Origin: a virus
Lineage: Duplodnaviria > Heunggongvirae > Uroviricota > Caudoviricetes
Direction: 5' to 3' (one strand)
IMG/VR virus record: IMGVR_UViG_3300045988_019982
Length of the DNA: 44,188 nt
Shown: positions 3,024 through 26,508 of the stretch, one piece after another
Numbering within the stretch: position 1 is the first letter of the stretch
Layout: the number at the start of each line of letters is the position of its first letter
The notes under the pieces: model-generated
The model's input: the letters and a program-made list of their open reading frames with translations, nothing else
Told to the model about the DNA's origin: nothing
Databases searched by the model: none
Position numbers and translations under genes: made by a program

Positions 3024-5195
3024 ATGAGTTACCTGTTCTTAGACTTTGAAACATTCTCCGAGGCCGATTTAAAGAAAGTTGGCTCCTACGCTTACGCCGA
3101 ACACCCAACCACCGAAGTGCTCATCTGTACCTATGCTTTTGACGACGAGCCTGTACAGGTATGGGATTGCACCGACGGCAGCGACATGCCGGGAGATTTG
3201 CACCGCGCGTTACGCCGTCTGGTTAAGCCAAACAGCCGCATCAAGATGGTGTGGCACAACGGCTCAATGTTCGATCGTCTTGTCATGAAGCACTGCTGGG
3301 GTTTTGATATTCCGGTAAGCAACACCATTGATACGATGATTTGGGCGTTTCGTCACGCGCTGCCGGGTTCACTTGATGCGTTGTGCGAAGTGCTGGGCGT
3401 ATCTGCGGACAACGCGAAAGACAAACGCGGCAAGGCTCTGATTCAGCGTTTTTCTAAACCGACGCCGAAGAACTACAAAATACGTCGCTACACCGCCGAA
3501 ACACACCCGGACGAGTGGGCGATATTCATCAAGTACGCCGTGAGCGACATCACCGCGATGCGTGAAGTCTTCCATAAGCTGCCGCGTTGGGGTAACTCCG
3601 AGTTCGAGGACCGGGTGCTTGAGCTGGACCAGTTAATCAATGACCGAGGGTTTAAGGTTGACGTAGCGCTGGCAGAAGCCGCAATTGAAGCCGTGGAGAA
3701 ACACAAAGCGCAGTTACAGGAAGAAGCCCAGCGCAAATACGGCGGCTCTCTTACTGGTAAAGACTTCCTTCCGATTCTGCGCGAACTTGCGCCCGCGCAC
3801 CGCATCCACAATGCGCAGAAGTCAACGCTTCATGACCTGCTGGCAGACGATGATTTACCGGACGATGCGCGTACTATTATCGAAATGCGGCTCGGGGCCG
3901 CGTCCACCGCATCAACGAAATATAACCCACTGCTGTTGGGCCGCTCTTCGGACGACCGACGCCGCGGTTGTATCCAGTACGGCGGGGCAAAGCGTACGTT
4001 ACGGTTTGCGGGTAAAGGCTTCCAGCCGCAGAACCTCGCACGCGGGTACTATCATGATGATGAACTGGATAAAGGTATTTCCGCGCTACTTAAAGGCCGT
4101 GCGCATCGCCGTTTTGATGTAGCCAAACTAACGGCATCGACGGTGCGTAGCTGCATCATACCGGAAGCCGGGCATAAGTTTGTCGTTGCCGATTACTCTA
4201 ACGTTGAAGGCCGTGGTTTGGCGTGGCTGGCTGGGGAAGACGATTTAATCGAAGTATTTGTAAACGGGGTTGATGTGTATAAGAAACTCGCATCAACGGT
4301 GTTCAACGTTGCCTATGAGGATGTAACAAAGGACCAAAGACAAATAGCCAAAGCAATGGTTCTGGGCCTCGGCTACGCGGGAGGTGTCGGTGCTTTCGTC
4401 ACGTTTGCTAAAAACTTAGGTCTTGATTTGAACGATATGGCCCGCACTTTAGACGGAACTTTCCCGGACCATATTTGGGCTGCTACCGCACGCGGTTACG
4501 AGTGGGCGCGTATTCAGGAAGCCAAGCGACCACCACGTCCTGGTGAAAAGGATGACAGGCCATCGTATATTCTTGATAAGAAAGTGTGGCGTACCTGCGA
4601 CGCTTTAAAACGCATGTACCGAGAAGCTAATCCTGCAATAGTCAAATTCTGGCGGGATATTGAAGACGCGGCCATGGCGGCTATCCGCAACCCAGGTAAA
4701 GAGTTCACCGCAGGGCCACGCGGCGTTAAGTTTTCGCGTAACGTAGAGACAGACAACAACGGCAACAAAGTCGCCGGTTGGTGGTTGCGCATGACGTTGC
4801 CGTCGGGCCGCGTCATGTCTTACCCGGGCGTCGGGTTGAGCGTGTCGAAAGAGACAGACGAAGACGGGAAGGTGTCTACTAACGTGCGCATCAAGTACCA
4901 GGGTGAAAATCAGCTAACCCGTCAGTGGGGGTTCCAGTACACCTACTCCGGTAAACTGGTGGAAAACTGCACTCAGGCGTTGTGCCGTGATTTGCTGGCC
5001 AACGCGCTGCTGAACGTTGAGGCAAACGGCTACCCGATTGTGCTTCACGTACACGATGAGATTATCTGCGAGACACCAGATTTACCGGAATACAATGTAG
5101 CAGAGCTTGAGCGGTTGATGTGCGAATTACCGGAATGGGCAGAAGGCTTCCCTCTTGTAGCGGAAGGTGCGGAGATGAAGCGTTATGCTAAGTAA
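3024..5195 (+). CDS. DNA polymerase, family A, with 3'-5' exonuclease domain
   Basis: 723 aa; Exo I LFLDFETFS; motif A DYSNVEGR; motif B RQIAKAMVLGLGYAGG; motif C HVHDE. Confidence 0.9.
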   Translation: MSYLFLDFETFSEADLKKVGSYAYAEHPTTEVLICTYAFDDEPVQVWDCTDGSDMPGDLHRALRRLVKPNSRIKMVWHNGSMFDRLVMKHCWGFDIPVSNTIDTMIWAFRHALPGSLDALCEVLGVSADNAKDKRGKALIQRFSKPTPKNYKIRRYTAETHPDEWAIFIKYAVSDITAMREVFHKLPRWGNSEFEDRVLELDQLINDRGFKVDVALAEAAIEAVEKHKAQLQEEAQRKYGGSLTGKDFLPILRELAPAHRIHNAQKSTLHDLLADDDLPDDARTIIEMRLGAASTASTKYNPLLLGRSSDDRRRGCIQYGGAKRTLRFAGKGFQPQNLARGYYHDDELDKGISALLKGRAHRRFDVAKLTASTVRSCIIPEAGHKFVVADYSNVEGRGLAWLAGEDDLIEVFVNGVDVYKKLASTVFNVAYEDVTKDQRQIAKAMVLGLGYAGGVGAFVTFAKNLGLDLNDMARTLDGTFPDHIWAATARGYEWARIQEAKRPPRPGEKDDRPSYILDKKVWRTCDALKRMYREANPAIVKFWRDIEDAAMAAIRNPGKEFTAGPRGVKFSRNVETDNNGNKVAGWWLRMTLPSGRVMSYPGVGLSVSKETDEDGKVSTNVRIKYQGENQLTRQWGFQYTYSGKLVENCTQALCRDLLANALLNVEANGYPIVLHVHDEIICETPDLPEYNVAELERLMCELPEWAEGFPLVAEGAEMKRYAK

Positions 5196-5402: not shown

Positions 5403-5550
5403 CAATGTTTGCATTTTGGACGATAGTAACCCTGCTCGCACTGTTACTCGGTGCAGGAATAGCCGCGATGTTCTGTTACGGTCTGTTCTTTAAGTTTGTC
5501 GGTATTGCGGTTCTCGGAGGGGCGTTTATAACCTGGACTCTGCGGTCATG
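5398..5550 (+). CDS. small hydrophobic peptide (50 aa)
   Basis: ATGA overlaps at both ends; MTMFAFWTIVTLLALLLGAGIAAMFCYGLFFKFVGIAVLGGAFITWTLRS. Confidence 0.35.
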
Positions 5551-5859
5551 ACTAAAGAGGGCCGCGTACAGAAATACGCAAAAGAGCGATTCGAGGCCAT
5601 TGGTGGCCTCATTCGTAAACTTTCCTACGAGGGGCGCTCCGGCGCTCCCGACCTGCTGGTAATTCTCCCCGGGGGCATCGTCTGGTTCGTCGAGGTGAAG
5701 AAAGACGAAAACACGAAGCCAGACCCGCACCAGCTACGTGAGCACGAGCGGATGCGCAAACGCGGTGCAAATGTTTTTGTCGTTGGGTCGTTTAAACAGG
5801 TTGACGACCTAATAGCGAACTATTATAGTTATCCGTACACCAACAATATAAGGAATTGA
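5548..5859 (+). CDS. VRR-NUC domain nuclease
   Basis: 103 aa; GAPDLLVILPGGIVWFVEVKK (D...E-x-K core) then QLREHERMRKRGANVFVV. Confidence 0.65.
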   Translation: MTKEGRVQKYAKERFEAIGGLIRKLSYEGRSGAPDLLVILPGGIVWFVEVKKDENTKPDPHQLREHERMRKRGANVFVVGSFKQVDDLIANYYSYPYTNNIRN

Positions 5860-5862
5860 GAA

Positions 5863-6054
5863 ATGAAATACGAATATGGCTGCAAACCAGCACGTGACAT
5901 CGTACCGGGCGACATGATTTTCAACGTTAAGACCCGCCAGCCTGTTGCCGTTGATACGGTGTTCGTAGAGTCTAACGGTAAACTGGTAATCGAAGATGTA
6001 ACCGGTAACGTTACGGCGTTCGGACGTAAAGAGTTGGTGCTGGTGGCCAAATGA
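5863..6054 (+). CDS. hypothetical protein (63 aa)
   Basis: ATG with GGAATTGAG upstream; stop overlaps MTase start. Confidence 0.5.
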   Translation: MKYEYGCKPARDIVPGDMIFNVKTRQPVAVDTVFVESNGKLVIEDVTGNVTAFGRKELVLVAK

Positions 6055-6995
6055 ACTATTACAACGAATGGGATAAAGGCGCAGCCGCGTGGCTGCGTGA
6101 ATTAATAAAACAGGGCCACATACCTTTTGGAGTTGTAGATGAAAGAAGCATTACCGAAGTTAAGCCAGAAGACCTTGACGGGTTCACCCAGTGTCATTTT
6201 TTCGCTGGCATCGGCGGCTGGCCTCTCGCGCTCAGACTTGCGGGAGTTTCGGAAGATACGCCTCTCTGGACGGGAAGCCCGCCTTGCCAACCGTTTAGCG
6301 CGGCAGGAAAACAACTCGGACAGTTCGACCCGAGACACCTCGCGCCAGTCTTCCTCGACCTCATCAGCGAGTGCCACCCTCCAGTCCTCTTTGGGGAACA
6401 GGTTGCGCCAGCAATTGCAAAATCGTGGATGTGCGATTTACAAACTCACCTGGAAGGAGAAGACTACGCCGTCGGGTTTGCCGTACTCCCAGCTTGTAGC
6501 GTCGGCGCTCCGCACAAAAGAGAACGACTCTTCTTTGGTGCGTACCAACTGGCCTGCACCGACAGCGAACGATTACAAAGGGAGCGGAGAGACTGTTATC
6601 CGCAAGGACGGGAAGGACAGAACATTCGACAGGCTGGACTACTCAACGGAACAGGGGCTAAAACTGACGAATTGGCCCACCCCTCGCAGTTCGGATGGGG
6701 AAAAGAACGTGAGAACACTAGAGGGGGCGCTATCGGAGATTCAGAGGAAGGGTGGGCCTCAAGACGTGGCACAAGCGGCGGCGATAACACAACTAATTCG
6801 CATCACGGCTTCTGGTCAGATGCTGACTGGCTCGGATGCCGGGATGGAAAGTTCCGGCCAGTTGAACCCGACACATTCCCGCTGGCTAATGGGATACCCG
6901 CCAGAGTGGGACGATTGCGCGGTTACGGCAATGCCATCGTCCCGCAAGTAGCCGCCGAATTTATAAAGGCGTTTATGGGGGCCGTAAATGAGTAA
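6051..6995 (+). CDS. DNA (cytosine-5)-methyltransferase, possibly frame-disrupted
   Basis: Motif I FFAGIGG, IV SPPCQPFSAAGK, VI FGEQV, VIII HKRERLFFG, X GYGNAIVPQVAAEFI in this frame; central third is low-complexity while frame +1 (6541-6951) reads like a real domain. Confidence 0.65.
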   Translation: MNYYNEWDKGAAAWLRELIKQGHIPFGVVDERSITEVKPEDLDGFTQCHFFAGIGGWPLALRLAGVSEDTPLWTGSPPCQPFSAAGKQLGQFDPRHLAPVFLDLISECHPPVLFGEQVAPAIAKSWMCDLQTHLEGEDYAVGFAVLPACSVGAPHKRERLFFGAYQLACTDSERLQRERRDCYPQGREGQNIRQAGLLNGTGAKTDELAHPSQFGWGKERENTRGGAIGDSEEGWASRRGTSGGDNTTNSHHGFWSDADWLGCRDGKFRPVEPDTFPLANGIPARVGRLRGYGNAIVPQVAAEFIKAFMGAVNE

Positions 6996-8412
6996 GTTTC
7001 AAAGGCGCGAATACCAGAAGCTCATGACTTCGTTCATGCTGCAACATCCGCGCTGTAATATTTGGGCGAGCATGGGCGCCGGGAAGACCGGCAGCGTACT
7101 GTGGACATTAAACCGACTGTTCCGCAACGGCCAACTTAATGATGACGACCGCGTGTTAATACTCGCCCCGCTGCGCGTTGCGTCCGGCACATGGCCCGCA
7201 GAACAAGAGAAATGGCAATTCCCATGCCTGAATGTCGTCGATGCTACCGGTTCAGAGAAGCGCCGCATCACGGCGCTGGAGTCAGACGCCAATGTGATTT
7301 GCATCAACTACGAGGTCATAGACTGGCTTATTGACTATTACGGCGTGGATGACTGGCCATTTACTGTAATAGTCAACGATGAAAGCACGAAATTGAAATC
7401 ATATCGTAGCCGTTCCGGGGGGAGCAAGCGGGCTAAGGCACTTAGTAAAGTAGCATTCAGAAATGTTAAGAGGTTGATAAACCTTACTGGTACGCCATCG
7501 CCAAACGGCCTCAAGGATTTGTGGGGCCAGAACTGGTTTATAGACGCTGGCGAGCGACTTGGTTCTTCGTACACGGCATTCACCGACCGCTGGTTTAACT
7601 CGGTACAGAAGGGCAAATCAGCTATGGCGCGCGAGTACCACGCCCGCCCTGGCGCAGATAACGAGATTCACCAGAAGATGAAGGATATTAGTCTCACTAT
7701 TGACGCTGCCGAGTGGTTCGGCTGTGAAGCGCCGATTATCGTTCCTGTTGAAATCGACCTGCCGAAGAAAGCACGTCAGGCGTACATTGATATGGAGGAG
7801 AAGTTATTCGCGGAACTGGAGAGCGGGGAAGTTGAAGCGGCTAATGCAGCAGCGAAGACGTCGAAGTGTTTGCAGATTGCCTCTGGTGCCGTGTATGTAT
7901 CGGGGCCAGACGGTGAAGCAACCAAAGACTGGGAGAAAGTGCACGACACGAAACTGGATGCGCTCGAGTCGATTGTTGAGGAGTTACAGGGCGCTCCGTT
8001 ACTGGTGGCCTATCAGTTTAAGCACGAACTGGAACGTATCCTTAAGCGTTTCCCACAAGCTCAGGCGTTTGCCAAAGGTGCGAAGGGCAATAAGCAGATG
8101 GAGGCGTGGAACCGTGGCGAAATACCTATGCTCCTGATACACCCCGCCTCCGCAGGCCACGGGCTGTCGCTACAACACGGCGGGCACCACATGGCCTTTA
8201 TGAGTCAGGGGTGGAACCTGGAACATTATCTGCAGGTTATCGAGCGTATAGGCCCAGTAAGGCAGATGCAATCTGGGTATAAACGGTCTGTATTCATTTA
8301 TCAAATAATAGCCCGAGATACTCTTGATGAAGTTGTTGCCGCGCGTACCGACGAGAAAAGGTCCGTACAGGACGAACTACTTAATTATATGAAGCGCAGA
8401 GGTAAGAAATGA
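6988..8412 (+). CDS. superfamily 2 ATP-dependent helicase
   Basis: 474 aa; Walker A ASMGAGKTGS; box II VIVNDESTKLK; ATG overlaps MTase stop. Confidence 0.75.
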   Translation: MSKFQRREYQKLMTSFMLQHPRCNIWASMGAGKTGSVLWTLNRLFRNGQLNDDDRVLILAPLRVASGTWPAEQEKWQFPCLNVVDATGSEKRRITALESDANVICINYEVIDWLIDYYGVDDWPFTVIVNDESTKLKSYRSRSGGSKRAKALSKVAFRNVKRLINLTGTPSPNGLKDLWGQNWFIDAGERLGSSYTAFTDRWFNSVQKGKSAMAREYHARPGADNEIHQKMKDISLTIDAAEWFGCEAPIIVPVEIDLPKKARQAYIDMEEKLFAELESGEVEAANAAAKTSKCLQIASGAVYVSGPDGEATKDWEKVHDTKLDALESIVEELQGAPLLVAYQFKHELERILKRFPQAQAFAKGAKGNKQMEAWNRGEIPMLLIHPASAGHGLSLQHGGHHMAFMSQGWNLEHYLQVIERIGPVRQMQSGYKRSVFIYQIIARDTLDEVVAARTDEKRSVQDELLNYMKRRGKK

Positions 8413-20361: not shown

Positions 20362-21526
20362 ATGCGTAGGTGATACGTTGAATTACGATGGACGACTGGT
20401 ACTGATTGCCTGTGGACTGCCCTTCTATACTTTGGGTAATTGATTCCGGGCCAGATATTTCTGGTGTGACCGCCGTGAGTTCTGCACGTTTCAAACTGAA
20501 AGACATAGCCCCGTTTACCCCGGCCAGAATAGAGTTAATCTCTACCTGCTGTTCGTTGATAAACTTCTGAATCATCGCCATGTCGTACAGCTTACCGGAG
20601 ATAGAGAAGGTGTTAGCTGCGCGGCCGCGTTCCACGAACGCAACGCTACTGTTGCCGAGTTCGAACTGTGCGGACGCGCTGTTATCGTTGGTGATGGTCA
20701 GGCTATCACAACGCAACGGCGTAGAACCGTCGAACACAGAAACGTCAACCGAGGAGAACGGCTCATCACCAAACGTAACAGAGGAGAAATCAGAACCAGA
20801 CGGCGGCTCAGTGAGAATCTCCTGGGTCCGCCCGATAAACGGGAAGCTGCCGGTTACCATCGCATTAACAGCCTGCTCGACAGTGAAACCAGAAACTTCC
20901 ACACCTTTGGTCAGCGTGTACGCGTCAGTCCCGCCACATTGGCCTTTGTACCAGGTGAGAATAGAGAACGTCTTACACTGGCTACCGGTTTCCAGTTTGT
21001 CGCCGGTCTTAGCCGCGGTAGTGGCTGTCTCTGTGGTCAGAGTATGTTGGATACCAGCCCCGGTTACTACCAGTGCCGTTACCGCAGTGACGATAAACGG
21101 TTTAGCGTTATCACCCGTTAAGTCAGTAAAAGCAATCAGGTCGCCTACTTCCACACCGTCAGTAATAAAGCTGCCATCAGCACGGGTGAACGTCTTGCCC
21201 GCCGGTGCGACGGTAATCGACAGACTGGACAGGGAGACACCGGATTGCCACGTAGAGCCTAAAGCCCCGGCTAACCAGTCATCCTGGCTTTTCGAACTAA
21301 GCTCGATAGCATATTCTCCGCTAACCTGCTTGTTACCGGTGCGGATGGATGTAGTTTCGCGGCTGCCGTCCAGTTCGTTGGAGGTCAGCGTGTCGCGGGT
21401 AATAGCAGGAACACCGCCTGTGTTGCGCAACGGCGACCATACCGGGTTAGTTGGTGTTACGCCCGGGGTGACTTCCGCCACATAGAATTGCGCGGTAGTC
21501 GCGCCCTTAAAAGGAGTTGTAGCCAT
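20360..21526 (-). CDS. major tail protein
   Basis: ~388 aa Thr/Ser/Gly-rich, upstream of tail completion genes; ATG at 21526 with AAGAGG SD (track start 21532 is GTG). Confidence 0.6.
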   Translation of the reverse strand: MATTPFKGATTAQFYVAEVTPGVTPTNPVWSPLRNTGGVPAITRDTLTSNELDGSRETTSIRTGNKQVSGEYAIELSSKSQDDWLAGALGSTWQSGVSLSSLSITVAPAGKTFTRADGSFITDGVEVGDLIAFTDLTGDNAKPFIVTAVTALVVTGAGIQHTLTTETATTAAKTGDKLETGSQCKTFSILTWYKGQCGGTDAYTLTKGVEVSGFTVEQAVNAMVTGSFPFIGRTQEILTEPPSGSDFSSVTFGDEPFSSVDVSVFDGSTPLRCDSLTITNDNSASAQFELGNSSVAFVERGRAANTFSISGKLYDMAMIQKFINEQQVEINSILAGVNGAMSFSLKRAELTAVTPEISGPESITQSIEGQSTGNQYQSSIVIQRITYA

Positions 21527-24695: not shown

Positions 24696-24754
24696 AATTT
24701 ACCTCTTAGTAAATGAAAAGAGGGACCGAAGTCCCTCTCGATTATATCTTAACC

Positions 24755-25804
24755 TTAAGCCCCGACACCAGTTACCAGGAAGGCAATCGGTACGTGCTTA
24801 CGGTCAACCACACGGTTCCAGTTGGAGGCGTTCGCCAGGTCCTGCCAGGAGGCAGAACGTGCGGCAGTCTCGGTTCCGTTGCCGGTGATTACCGCGCTGG
24901 TGAAGCTGTAGCCCAGTGGGTGCAGCAACCAGGTCTTACGGGTCCACAGGGTTTCGACGCCGCCGCCGTTACCACGGGATGCTTCGCGCTCATATTCCAG
25001 CGGGTTAGACGGGGAACCTTCACCGTAACCGATAGCACCGTTGCCGAAGATGATGGAGATGAACTTACGGCTGCCGCCAGTACCAACTACAGTCATGCTG
25101 TCATCAACAATCACACGGTAGCCCTGGTAGGTGGCGAACAAGGTGTCGTTGTCCGCATCTTTGATGTAGTCAATAAGCTGCTGCTTACGTGCCTGCGCAT
25201 AAACGAAGCTGTGCATAGCAATAGCGCCCAGCACTTCACCGCCGTTGCCCATCAGCGCATCGCCCATAGTCTGGGTAGCGTCGATGAACGCGCCGGGATC
25301 GAAGCCCAGAGTAGCGGACACGTCGATTACCATGTCGTTCTGCTCGTGGTATTCGTCGGTAGCGGCTACGTTGTCGTTGTACAGACCGAGCGCGGTAGCA
25401 ATCAGACGGCGTTGTGCCTGTCGCTGCCAGAAGTTATCCAGACGGGCCGCTACGGATCTCAGAGGGTCTTGGCGGGTAAGTTCAACAGTCAGGTCAGCCT
25501 GACCGAAACCTTCGTTCAGGTACGCAACGCGGGCCATCATCTCACCAGTCTGCACATTACGCGGGGTTGCGATATCCTGATACACATCGTTCGAGTAGTT
25601 CGGCTCGATAGACGTATCAATCGCTTTCCAGAAAGGGATGTTGGCGATGTTAGATGGACCGCGGGCAATCTCGGCAGCGTATGGAGTCTGGGTAAGGATA
25701 CCGGACTGGAAGAACGCAGTTTTTTCCACCGGGTCTTCTGTCATGTAAGACAGAATTACCGATTCTTTACCAGTTACGATATCGCCAATAGTAGTAATTG
25801 CCAT
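24755..25804 (-). CDS. major capsid protein
   Basis: 349 aa directly after scaffold gene; size and position typical of HK97-fold capsid proteins. Confidence 0.75.
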   Translation of the reverse strand: MAITTIGDIVTGKESVILSYMTEDPVEKTAFFQSGILTQTPYAAEIARGPSNIANIPFWKAIDTSIEPNYSNDVYQDIATPRNVQTGEMMARVAYLNEGFGQADLTVELTRQDPLRSVAARLDNFWQRQAQRRLIATALGLYNDNVAATDEYHEQNDMVIDVSATLGFDPGAFIDATQTMGDALMGNGGEVLGAIAMHSFVYAQARKQQLIDYIKDADNDTLFATYQGYRVIVDDSMTVVGTGGSRKFISIIFGNGAIGYGEGSPSNPLEYEREASRGNGGGVETLWTRKTWLLHPLGYSFTSAVITGNGTETAARSASWQDLANASNWNRVVDRKHVPIAFLVTGVGA

Positions 25805-26508
25805 TATTTTTTCCTCAGGGCTTTAAGTTGCCGTTCAAATTCGGCAGGGTTCGATTCGTACAGAGCGATACGCTCCGCTTCACTCATGTCTTTAAACGCT
25901 GGTGCGGCCCCGCCGCCTTTGCTACCGGAAGCCCCGCCGCCGGAAGCTGCATTTGCTTTAATCAAATGCGAAAACGCTTTGTGTTCACGCAGATATTTGC
26001 GGAACTGTTCCGGGTCAGTCGTGATTACGTTGCCGTCTGCACCAACAAACTTAGTAACCACATCATCGCCTTCGAACTCAGTCTTAACGAACGGTGCAAG
26101 AATGTCCACTGCTTCCGGGGTGATGAAGTCACCCGCGAAAGAGCCTAACACTGCCTTACGTTCGCTGCCGAGGATGCGCTCTGCCATTTTAGAGATGCGG
26201 CCGTCTTTCTCGGCTAACACCGGGTCATACTGGCTACGAATCGTTTTTTCGAACTCGTCCATCTTACCAGCAGCTTTTAACGCCTCCTGGTGTGCGCGCT
26301 GCCGTTCTTCTTCGGCCTCTTTTGCTTTACGGGCGGCTTCTTTCTTCTCCGCCAGCAATGCTTCCTGATTGGCCTTAAGCCCGGCTACTTCTTTCTCAAT
26401 AAGCGCCTGAACTTCTTCGGCAGTGAACATTTTCAGCGCGTCACCGCCACCAGCTTTATCTTCTGCCCCAGCTTCTTCCTGGAACGGATAACGTAAAAAA
26501 CGATTCAT
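25804..26508 (-). CDS. capsid scaffolding protein
   Basis: Charged helical sequence (EKEVAGLKANQEALLAEKKEAARKAKEAEEERQRAHQEALKAAGK); ATG at 26508 preferred over TTG 26562. Confidence 0.65.
   Translation of the reverse strand: MNRFLRYPFQEEAGAEDKAGGGDALKMFTAEEVQALIEKEVAGLKANQEALLAEKKEAARKAKEAEEERQRAHQEALKAAGKMDEFEKTIRSQYDPVLAEKDGRISKMAERILGSERKAVLGSFAGDFITPEAVDILAPFVKTEFEGDDVVTKFVGADGNVITTDPEQFRKYLREHKAFSHLIKANAASGGGASGSKGGGAAPAFKDMSEAERIALYESNPAEFERQLKALRKK

Follow-up and report, generated by a model that had tools for sequence, protein, structure and literature searches.

A conserved reading frame nested in a phage C5-cytosine methyltransferase gene likely encodes a second subunit of the enzyme

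How should a methyltransferase gene be read when its conserved motifs are divided between two reading frames? This question is raised by nucleotides 6051–6995 of the viral record IMGVR_UViG_3300045988_019982, a stretch of 44,188 nucleotides (nt) that we refer to as a whole as the window. An open reading frame (ORF) of 314 amino acids, here called alpha and its frame F1, spans 6051–6995 on the plus strand with motifs of a C5-cytosine methyltransferase. A second, uninterrupted ORF of 270 amino acids (beta, frame F2) starts with ATG and lies wholly inside it in the +1 frame at 6139–6951; the remaining frame is called F3. The first-pass annotation of this DNA had recognised motifs I, IV, VI, VIII and X in F1 around a central Gly/Arg/Glu/Ser-rich stretch, and in the +1 frame a protein-like patch with a duplicated motif and a motif IX-like end. 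From these features it had proposed two compensating frameshifts near 6540 and 6910 in a pseudogenised or recoded gene, or paired assembly indels. We found the same features: more than one frame is needed to account for the gene, its methyltransferase elements are spread over two of them, and F2 contains two WPTP-type motifs and the motif IX-like LNPTHSRWLMGYPPEW, although its full ORF extends well beyond the patch. Our explanation is a different one. We consider it likely that beta is a gene nested inside the alpha gene and that the two polypeptides form one C5-cytosine methyltransferase. Both ORFs exist, are conserved and are selected in different segments, F1 is kept open, and the start signal of beta is conserved; from this we infer the translation of beta, an alpha–beta heteromer, recognition of DNA by beta and an anti-restriction role.

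The two-frame arrangement is shared by relatives of the window gene. In each of the 85 related phage and viral loci that we collected (L001–L085), with alpha identities of 42–97%, beta is nested in alpha and neither ORF is broken; the +1 ORF covers a median of 88% of F1 in them, coverage being 17% in the +2 frame and 37% after synonymous shuffling. In the window itself, F3 is open for at most 66 codons, and none of 300 synonymous-codon shuffles of F1 yielded a +1 ORF of 270 codons (mean 106, maximum 222). Bacterial genomes, one per species, were scanned with a beta-only pattern, thereby avoiding selection by F1; this gave 421 matches, 409 of which encode a beta relative, mostly in Proteobacteria. 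Among the best 80 of these matches, to which the counts of bacterial loci refer, about 75 have an alpha frame that is uninterrupted around beta, 62 show motifs IV, VI and X together in that frame by strict patterns, and beta was not found as a separate, non-overlapping gene. A large protein collection holds more than 8,000 F1 homologues, full-length in one frame, and at least 3,681 F2 homologues, end to end in the +1 frame; residues 76–270 of beta as the query gave 9,998 matches among 50%-identity cluster representatives (expectation value (E) ≤ 1e-3). Paired assembly indels and a pseudogene are both excluded, by the completeness of the two frames here, in the 85 related loci and in about 75 of the 80 bacterial ones, and by such numbers of homologues, each running end to end in its own frame. 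It had also been expected that homologues, once aligned, would reveal a change of frame and a real +1 peptide: the former was not borne out, as they align end to end in the 6051–6995 frame, yet the latter was, with strong homologue matches to the +1 peptide.

Database records reflect this arrangement unevenly. A tblastn search with the F2 peptide matched 242 phage records, including the distant N15, Edwardsiella eiAU and Bordetella PHB09, and phages of Rhodobacter, Burkholderia and Xanthomonas. For N15 gp58, eiAU and PHB09, the F2 peptide aligns to the +1 frame within the ORF annotated as a methyltransferase, and neither frame is interrupted. Most records annotate F1 only, and phage ST20 has only the beta-frame ORF, as a hypothetical protein. 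In phage K1G both ORFs are annotated, ORF31 as 'C-specific methylase' and ORF30 as 'Mte8-like protein', a label on whose origin a literature search yielded nothing informative. For an Escherichia coli Ec1117 prophage (NZ_CP126602.1; L086, 2330–3532), the Prokaryotic Genome Annotation Pipeline (PGAP) annotates two 'incomplete' pseudogene fragments; despite this call, the alpha ORF (400 amino acids) and the beta ORF (334 amino acids) are both intact. Truly frameshifted copies are rare. Two viral contigs from metagenome 3300045988 (L016 and L029) carry a 1-nt insertion near alpha nt 146 that disrupts the alpha N-terminus, and the protein P0241 is a fusion of alpha(1–94) to beta by frameshift; these copies may have truly decayed or may have been misassembled. 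The Pfam methyltransferase family PF00145 was detected in just one of 45 long beta-like proteins, a frameshift fusion, and no single-chain ancestor or relative was found among the 45.

Which frame does selection act on? Ratios of nonsynonymous to synonymous substitution rates (dN/dS) were estimated by the Nei-Gojobori method with 15 close relatives. Over 6051–6545, dN/dS is 0.01–0.31 for F1 and 0.83 or above for F2; over 6546–6750 it is 1.05–1.11 for F1 and 0.37–0.39 for F2; over 6841–6900 it is about 0.45 for both frames; and over 6901–6995 it is 0.0–0.07 for F1 and above 1 for F2. The central region is under purifying selection in F2 and evolves neutrally in F1. The frame under selection switches near 6546 and near 6900–6912, so the switch points of about 6540 and 6910 given by the first-pass annotation were about right. 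Codon-position diversity in a deep alignment agrees with dN/dS: F1 third-position diversity is 0.50–0.67 where F1 alone matters and 0.38–0.40 over alpha residues 106–150, which are dual-coded with a conserved helix and hairpin of beta. Towards the C-terminus, the codon-position pattern is that of F1 for alpha residues 256–270, of F2 for 271–285 (motif IX), and of F1 again for 286–300 (motif X). The dual constraint can be followed down to a single codon. Alpha Phe114 is encoded by TTT in 69 of 75 loci, the other six having CTT or ATT at this codon, and all of these variants keep beta Leu85 as TTG. The codon is never TTC, which would replace the invariant beta Leu85 by Ser, and its avoidance thereby preserves this leucine.

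Even where its amino acids are unconstrained, F1 remains open. In the central region of 75 loci, comprising 7,449 codons, there are 0 stop codons in F1, 1 in F2 and 400 in F3. When F2 was shuffled synonymously, F1 was open with a median probability of 0.06 per locus, about 2.4 stops being expected per locus. Two loci with long central regions of 224–226 codons (L079 and L077) are stop-free in F1, with 10–11 stops expected. Because F1 is free of stops there without amino-acid constraint, ribosomes must read it through to motif X.

Beta also has start signals of its own. In the window, the Shine-Dalgarno (SD) sequence GGAG at 6129–6132 is separated by a 6-nt spacer from the ATG at 6139–6141, and a TAG in the +1 frame stands directly before this ATG. 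In related loci, GGAG, or an AGGAG that falls across the AGG AGC codons for Arg-Ser in alpha, often precedes the beta ATG, and a +1-frame ATG is located at alpha residue 30 or 36 in 71 of 75. The corresponding ATG falls at alpha residues 28–40 in 64 of 70 independent bacterial loci, with an SD in 35. About 70 F2 codons upstream of the constrained part of beta contain 2 stops over the 75 loci against some 33 expected, and this leader is without amino-acid constraint. The conserved SD and ATG, together with the open upstream frame, support internal initiation of beta as judged from the sequences.

What would the two polypeptides contribute? Alpha is the putative catalytic large subunit of a C5-cytosine methyltransferase (PF00145, phrog_363). 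The Pfam match in F1 is limited to residues 73–166 (E 3.7e-16), phrog_363 of the PHROGs database matches residues 1–313 (E 3.5e-86), and the alpha family profile matches the single-chain enzyme M.HhaI over 73–172 (E 2.4e-17; hhalign probability 98%), with motifs I and IV–VIII aligned. The profile and hhalign against M.HhaI locate motif I (FFAGIGG, residues 50–56, 6198–6218), which would bind S-adenosylmethionine (AdoMet), motif IV (PPCQPFSAAGK, residues 77–87, 6279–6311) with the catalytic Cys79, and motif VIII (HKRERLFFG, residues 155–163, 6513–6539). P78, C79 and Q80 are invariant among 66 homologues. Motif VI (GEQV, residues 115–118) is encoded at 6393–6404 by bases that also code for conserved beta residues, Leu85 among them. 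Ahead of motif I, residues 3–37 (YYNEWDKGAAAW...VDERSITEV, 6057–6161) resemble motifs II–III. BLASTP aligns them to M.HhaI 37–64 (E 0.002), hhalign leaves a 35-residue gap in alpha at the position of M.HhaI motifs II–III, and the PF00145 score, 61.0 bits for alpha as it stands, rises to 79.7 bits once the segment is placed after motif I, the profile then being covered contiguously over 5–160. These alignments suggest that alpha may have undergone a local permutation that put a motif II–III-like segment before motif I.

Beyond motif VIII, alpha continues with a Gly/Arg/Glu/Ser-rich linker (residues 166–252, 6546–6806), which is the F1 reading of the putative recognition region of beta and is free to vary while stop-free. 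Its residues are of low complexity and unconserved among homologues, and in the AlphaFold2 model of alpha it is the stretch with the lowest predicted local distance difference test (pLDDT) values. A conserved segment then follows (FWSDADWLGCRDGKFR, residues 254–269, 6810–6857), dual-coded with beta ...GQMLTGSDAGMESSG; C263, D265 and R269 are invariant or nearly so, and the segment is possibly, from its sequence, the equivalent of the M.HhaI hairpin before motif IX. Motif X (GYGNAIVPQVAAEFI, residues 291–305, 6921–6965) aligns to FGNSVV of M.HhaI, and its G293, N294 and I296 are invariant. Alpha has the catalytic Pro-Cys of motif IV, the glutamate of motif VI and the arginines of motif VIII that are characteristic of PF00145; motif X is on the same chain as these catalytic motifs, but the recognition domain and motif IX are not. 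Since motif IX and the conserved variable-region modules lie in the +1 frame, the locus fits the PF00145 family only as a two-chain assembly. In a few relatives the alpha frame is extended: L030, L031 and L085 carry an insertion of 170–190 amino acids between the beta stop codon and motif X, and in L036 alpha continues in frame into a Dam-like (DPPY) methyltransferase.

Beta, the putative small specificity subunit, matches no Pfam or NCBIfam family. It is matched by phrog_1008 (E 5.3e-60), and PHROGs lists separate 'DNA methyltransferase' families for the two frames; peptides such as TNWPAPTANDYK are unique to F2. A conserved helix and beta-hairpin, with which the constrained part of beta begins (residues 76–123, ...LQSSLGNRLRQQL...IYKLTWKEKTTPSGLPYSQLVAS, 6364–6507), is dual-coded with alpha motifs VI–VIII. 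L81, L85 and G97 are invariant in it and Y101, T110 and P111 nearly so, and we regard it as a candidate for the element that associates with alpha. Two WPTP-type modules follow, TNWPAPTANDYKGSGE at 6544–6591 (F2 dN/dS 0.37) and TNWPTPRSSDGEKN at 6667–6708, with in-frame module variation among relatives. The beta proteins of relatives contain 0–5 'W-P-T-P-x-A-x-D' modules of about 30–40 amino acids each, and P0267 contains 7. Module types recur across relatives in differing combinations, and close relatives of the window differ by clean in-frame blocks of 105, 30, 120 and 21 nt, all multiples of 3. Such sequence variation suggests that the WPTP modules are modular, exchangeable specificity elements.

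The beta C-terminus carries motif IX (QLNPTHSRWLMGYPPEWD, 6859–6912), which shows the F2 codon-position pattern. The sole hhalign match of the beta profile to M.HhaI joins beta 238–258 to M.HhaI 270–290 (KTRKLHPRECARVMGYPDSYK), and a variant of beta in L019 (SFHPIMARQIMGFPPEW) aligns to the same M.HhaI residues. L019 and L038 share this other C-terminal type, and the usual alpha segment FWSDADW..DGK.R is absent or different in them. The F1 reading PVEPDTFPLANGIP was considered as the true motif IX and rejected, because F1 varies (VEAWTQQMVDGVP in L030 and L033) where the F2 motif is kept; the F1-only profile is also the worst match to M.HhaI. In seven loci (L005, which is eiAU, and L020, L023, L024, L033, L034 and L037), the beta frame has no stop and continues into the downstream ORF, which in eiAU is annotated as a DNA methyltransferase and reads like one by eye. 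In L087 (2565–4349; ENA ERZ27314313 k141_860601), the beta frame carries an inserted HNH-like domain of about 200 amino acids, placed between alpha motifs VI and VII, and the alpha frame is open across the insertion as a 594-amino-acid ORF.

How might the two polypeptides work together? As alpha has no conserved recognition region and beta no catalytic motifs, the active enzyme should be an alpha–beta complex. Ribosomes starting at 6051 would produce alpha, beginning with the large AdoMet-binding and catalytic domain (the motif II–III-like segment and motifs I, IV, VI and VIII), which would be followed by a freely evolving linker of about 87 residues, the short conserved hairpin-like segment and the motif X helix. 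Beta would come from ribosomes that initiate at the internal SD and ATG (6129–6141) and translate the +1 frame; its unconstrained leader and its conserved helix and hairpin, together with both WPTP-type modules and motif IX, might make up a small DNA-recognition domain. The assembled enzyme would methylate the phage DNA and might thereby protect it from host restriction.

Could the same features arise from a single polypeptide? Programmed recoding would yield one chain by a frameshift from F1 to F2 near 6540 and a return near 6910, where the frame under selection indeed changes, and constructs spliced in this manner resemble canonical enzymes more than F1 does. Against M.HhaI, a C-terminal construct of F1 only gave an hhalign score of 12.8 (E 0.28), the combination of F2 motif IX with F1 motif X gave 22.8 (E 0.0055), and the addition of CRDGKFR from F1 in front of these gave 32.7 (E 6e-5). 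PF00145 coverage of a spliced construct likewise reaches profile position 314, from position 66, with almost no gain in score; this artificial construct has four switches, and two-switch and short chimeras did not extend the match in Pfam. The best canonical match would require four shifts, not two, and with canonical elements alternating between the frames an interdigitating two-chain enzyme is simpler than four ribosomal shifts. Slippery sequences are not conserved at the junctions: an X_XXY_YYZ heptamer occurs at the first in 11 of 77 loci and at the second in 4 of 77, junction sequences are lineage-specific, and the CTC TTC TTT GGT of the window is not kept in other lineages. Moreover, recoding would work without an open central F1 and without an F2 that is open, with SD and ATG, some 400 nt upstream, but both features have been kept. 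M.EcoHK31I, a two-polypeptide C5-methyltransferase of E. coli with the recognition sequence YGGCCR, functions as two separately expressed polypeptides. With F1 open in its neutral region, F2 provided with its own SD and ATG, and no slippery heptamer conserved, the recoding suggested by the first-pass annotation is unneeded, and we consider it very unlikely.

Decay or artefact, in the form of a pseudogene or a misassembly with two compensating indels, could draw on the low-complexity, unconserved central peptide of F1, the pseudogene call of PGAP for the E. coli prophage and the occasional frameshifted copies. The prophage copy has both ORFs intact, however, the pair of ORFs is present in hundreds of phages and prophages that were sequenced independently, with alpha identities as low as about 42%, the length differences among close relatives are all multiples of 3, and both frames are under purifying selection. 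This explanation is effectively refuted by the comparative data, and we attach next to no probability to it. It is also conceivable that the two frames have separate functions, alpha being a self-sufficient methyltransferase, perhaps of low specificity, and the nested ORF an unrelated protein such as a regulator or an anti-defence factor. The absence of a Pfam or NCBIfam family for beta, the mostly disordered model of beta alone and the shortness of its likeness to motif IX would be compatible with this. In that case alpha would have to act with no conserved region between motif VIII and the segment before motif X, that is, with no recognition domain; beta always accompanies alpha and never stands alone among the best 80 beta-picked loci; its C-terminus matches M.HhaI motif IX specifically in two sequence subtypes; and the precedent, M.EcoHK31I, needs both chains. 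We judge separate functions to be rather improbable.

Several points nevertheless weigh against the nested two-subunit enzyme that we favour. Its central steps, the translation of beta and the formation of a complex, are read here from sequence. The assignment of domains to beta is based on short motif matches, with single pairwise hhalign E-values from 0.067 to 6e-5, and no methyltransferase was retrieved when profiles of beta, of the motif IX + X chimera or of the F1 C-terminus were searched with HMMER against PDB sequences. The AlphaFold2 models, made from shallow alignments, are of low confidence, with a mean pLDDT of 50 for beta and 43 for alpha; the beta model is confident only at the helix and hairpin of residues 76–123 (pLDDT 80–89), and its remainder is mostly modelled as disordered. 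When codon usage is taken from the window alone, F1 and F2 are only partly distinguishable. The four frame alternations needed for the best canonical single-chain match are odd for any model. The recognition domain of M.EcoHK31I has been published as part of its alpha subunit, unlike the conserved variable-region modules in beta here, and the likeness between the two systems is one of published architecture, compared by description.

Beyond the nested two-subunit enzyme itself, we tentatively put forward a wider interpretation in five parts, which we hold to be possible rather than probable when they are taken jointly. The WPTP modules, 0–7 per protein, would be tandem recognition units gained and lost as in-frame blocks, by which phages could retune or multiply their methylation specificity against host restriction systems. 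Nesting would turn the variable region of alpha into a pure tether that need only stay stop-free. With the core in F1, the modules in F2, the hairpin in F1, motif IX in F2 and motif X in F1, pieces of an ancestral single-chain enzyme would have been moved between the subunits by paired frameshifts. The family, with thousands of cluster representatives, would be among the largest and, at about 800 nt, the longest same-strand nested pairs of double-stranded DNA phages and prophages. Finally, the order of alpha, with motifs II–III before motif I, would be a previously undescribed local permutation.

What does this locus then mean for the annotation and use of such genes? As a nested two-subunit enzyme, it is a further case of a known but rarely recognised type of C5-methyltransferase in which the gene of the first subunit contains that of the second; the size of the family, the modular repeats of beta and the permuted N-terminus of alpha are possibly new. 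Gene callers and PGAP either miss the nested ORF or report copies that are intact as fragments of a pseudogene, so that the methylation capacity of phages is scored wrongly in hundreds of genomes, those of therapeutic Kagunavirus and Jersey-like phages among them. The locus is also a clear example from nature of dual coding over a long stretch of one strand, in which selection on one frame is reduced to the avoidance of stop codons, which makes it useful for overlapping-gene theory and for the design of synthetic overlapping genes. M.EcoHK31I has served as a platform for targeted methylation owing to its natural split, and this toolbox would grow greatly with a very large, diverse family of split enzymes whose specificity subunits are possibly modular. 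The variation of module content among near-identical phages suggests that anti-restriction methylation is retuned fast.

The genomic setting is that of a phage replication module. The window is an essentially complete genome of a Kagunavirus-like phage (Guernseyvirinae), and vB_Eco_K-01, phiEc3 and K1G are among the phages that are 90–93% identical to its region 5800–7300. The module comprises a DNA polymerase (3024–5195), a VRR-NUC nuclease (5548–5859), a small ORF (5863–6054), the methyltransferase (6051–6995) and an SNF2-type helicase (6988–8412). The start ATG of alpha overlaps the stop of the upstream small ORF (ATGA, 6051–6054), and the ATG of the helicase (6988) lies 8 nt before the alpha stop; by these overlaps the module looks translationally coupled. 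In relatives, an adenine methyltransferase often adjoins the alpha/beta gene. Elsewhere in the window, two ORFs on the plus strand run antisense to structural genes: an unusually long one of 551 amino acids (24713–26368), opposite the major head and scaffolding protein genes, and one of 301 amino acids (20580–21485), opposite a minor tail protein gene. PHROG matches were obtained for the minus-strand genes but for neither of these two ORFs, which are probably shadow ORFs.

How does the predicted enzyme compare with known systems? K1G ORF31/ORF30, N15 gp58, eiAU and PHB09 (PHROG 363 and 1008) are direct homologues with the same two nested ORFs. A functional link between the two ORFs was stated in no record or paper that we found for these phages, and a literature search found no paper tying phage genes to the architecture of M.EcoHK31I. 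Exchangeable specificity modules are known from the orphan multispecific C5-methyltransferases M.SPRI, M.Phi3TI and M.Rho11sI of Bacillus phages, which are single chains with tandem variable-region modules, recognition domains of about 40–50 amino acids and proven specificity. The WPTP modules of the window family similarly vary in number and combination, their role in recognition being putative, and no sequence similarity was found between the beta family and the M.SPRI group. Among enzymes made of two chains, M.AquI of Agmenellum quadruplicatum is said in its original papers to be encoded by two genes that overlap only briefly. It recognises CYCGRG and is a natural two-polypeptide C5-methyltransferase split within the variable region (PMC3404938). 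The window enzyme would resemble it in consisting of two polypeptides; however, whereas the split of M.AquI is sequential, beta here lies completely inside the alpha gene, and motif X is back in alpha.

The closest counterpart is M.EcoHK31I, for which Lee, Kam and Shaw (1995) reportedly gave 309 amino acids for alpha and 176 for beta. The alpha of the window, with 314 amino acids, is of similar size, whereas its beta, with 270 amino acids, is longer, and in contrast to M.EcoHK31I, which belongs to a restriction-modification system, the window gene is solitary in a phage replication module. The whole beta coding sequence of M.EcoHK31I lies inside its alpha gene, in a different frame, and motifs I–VIII and X are in alpha with motif IX in beta (PMC2836561; PMC3404938). 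Removal of the beta starts by alpha-silent changes left that enzyme inactive, and beta supplied from a second plasmid restored methylation (PMC2836561; PMC3404938). The window locus has the same design: the beta ORF lies wholly inside the alpha ORF on the same strand in a different frame, with the catalytic motifs and motif X in alpha and motif IX in beta. The beta of M.EcoHK31I is produced by internal initiation from more than one usable start codon, and the beta of the window has its own internal SD and ATG; the N-terminal part of the former is needed for association with alpha, which fits the conserved helix and hairpin of the latter.

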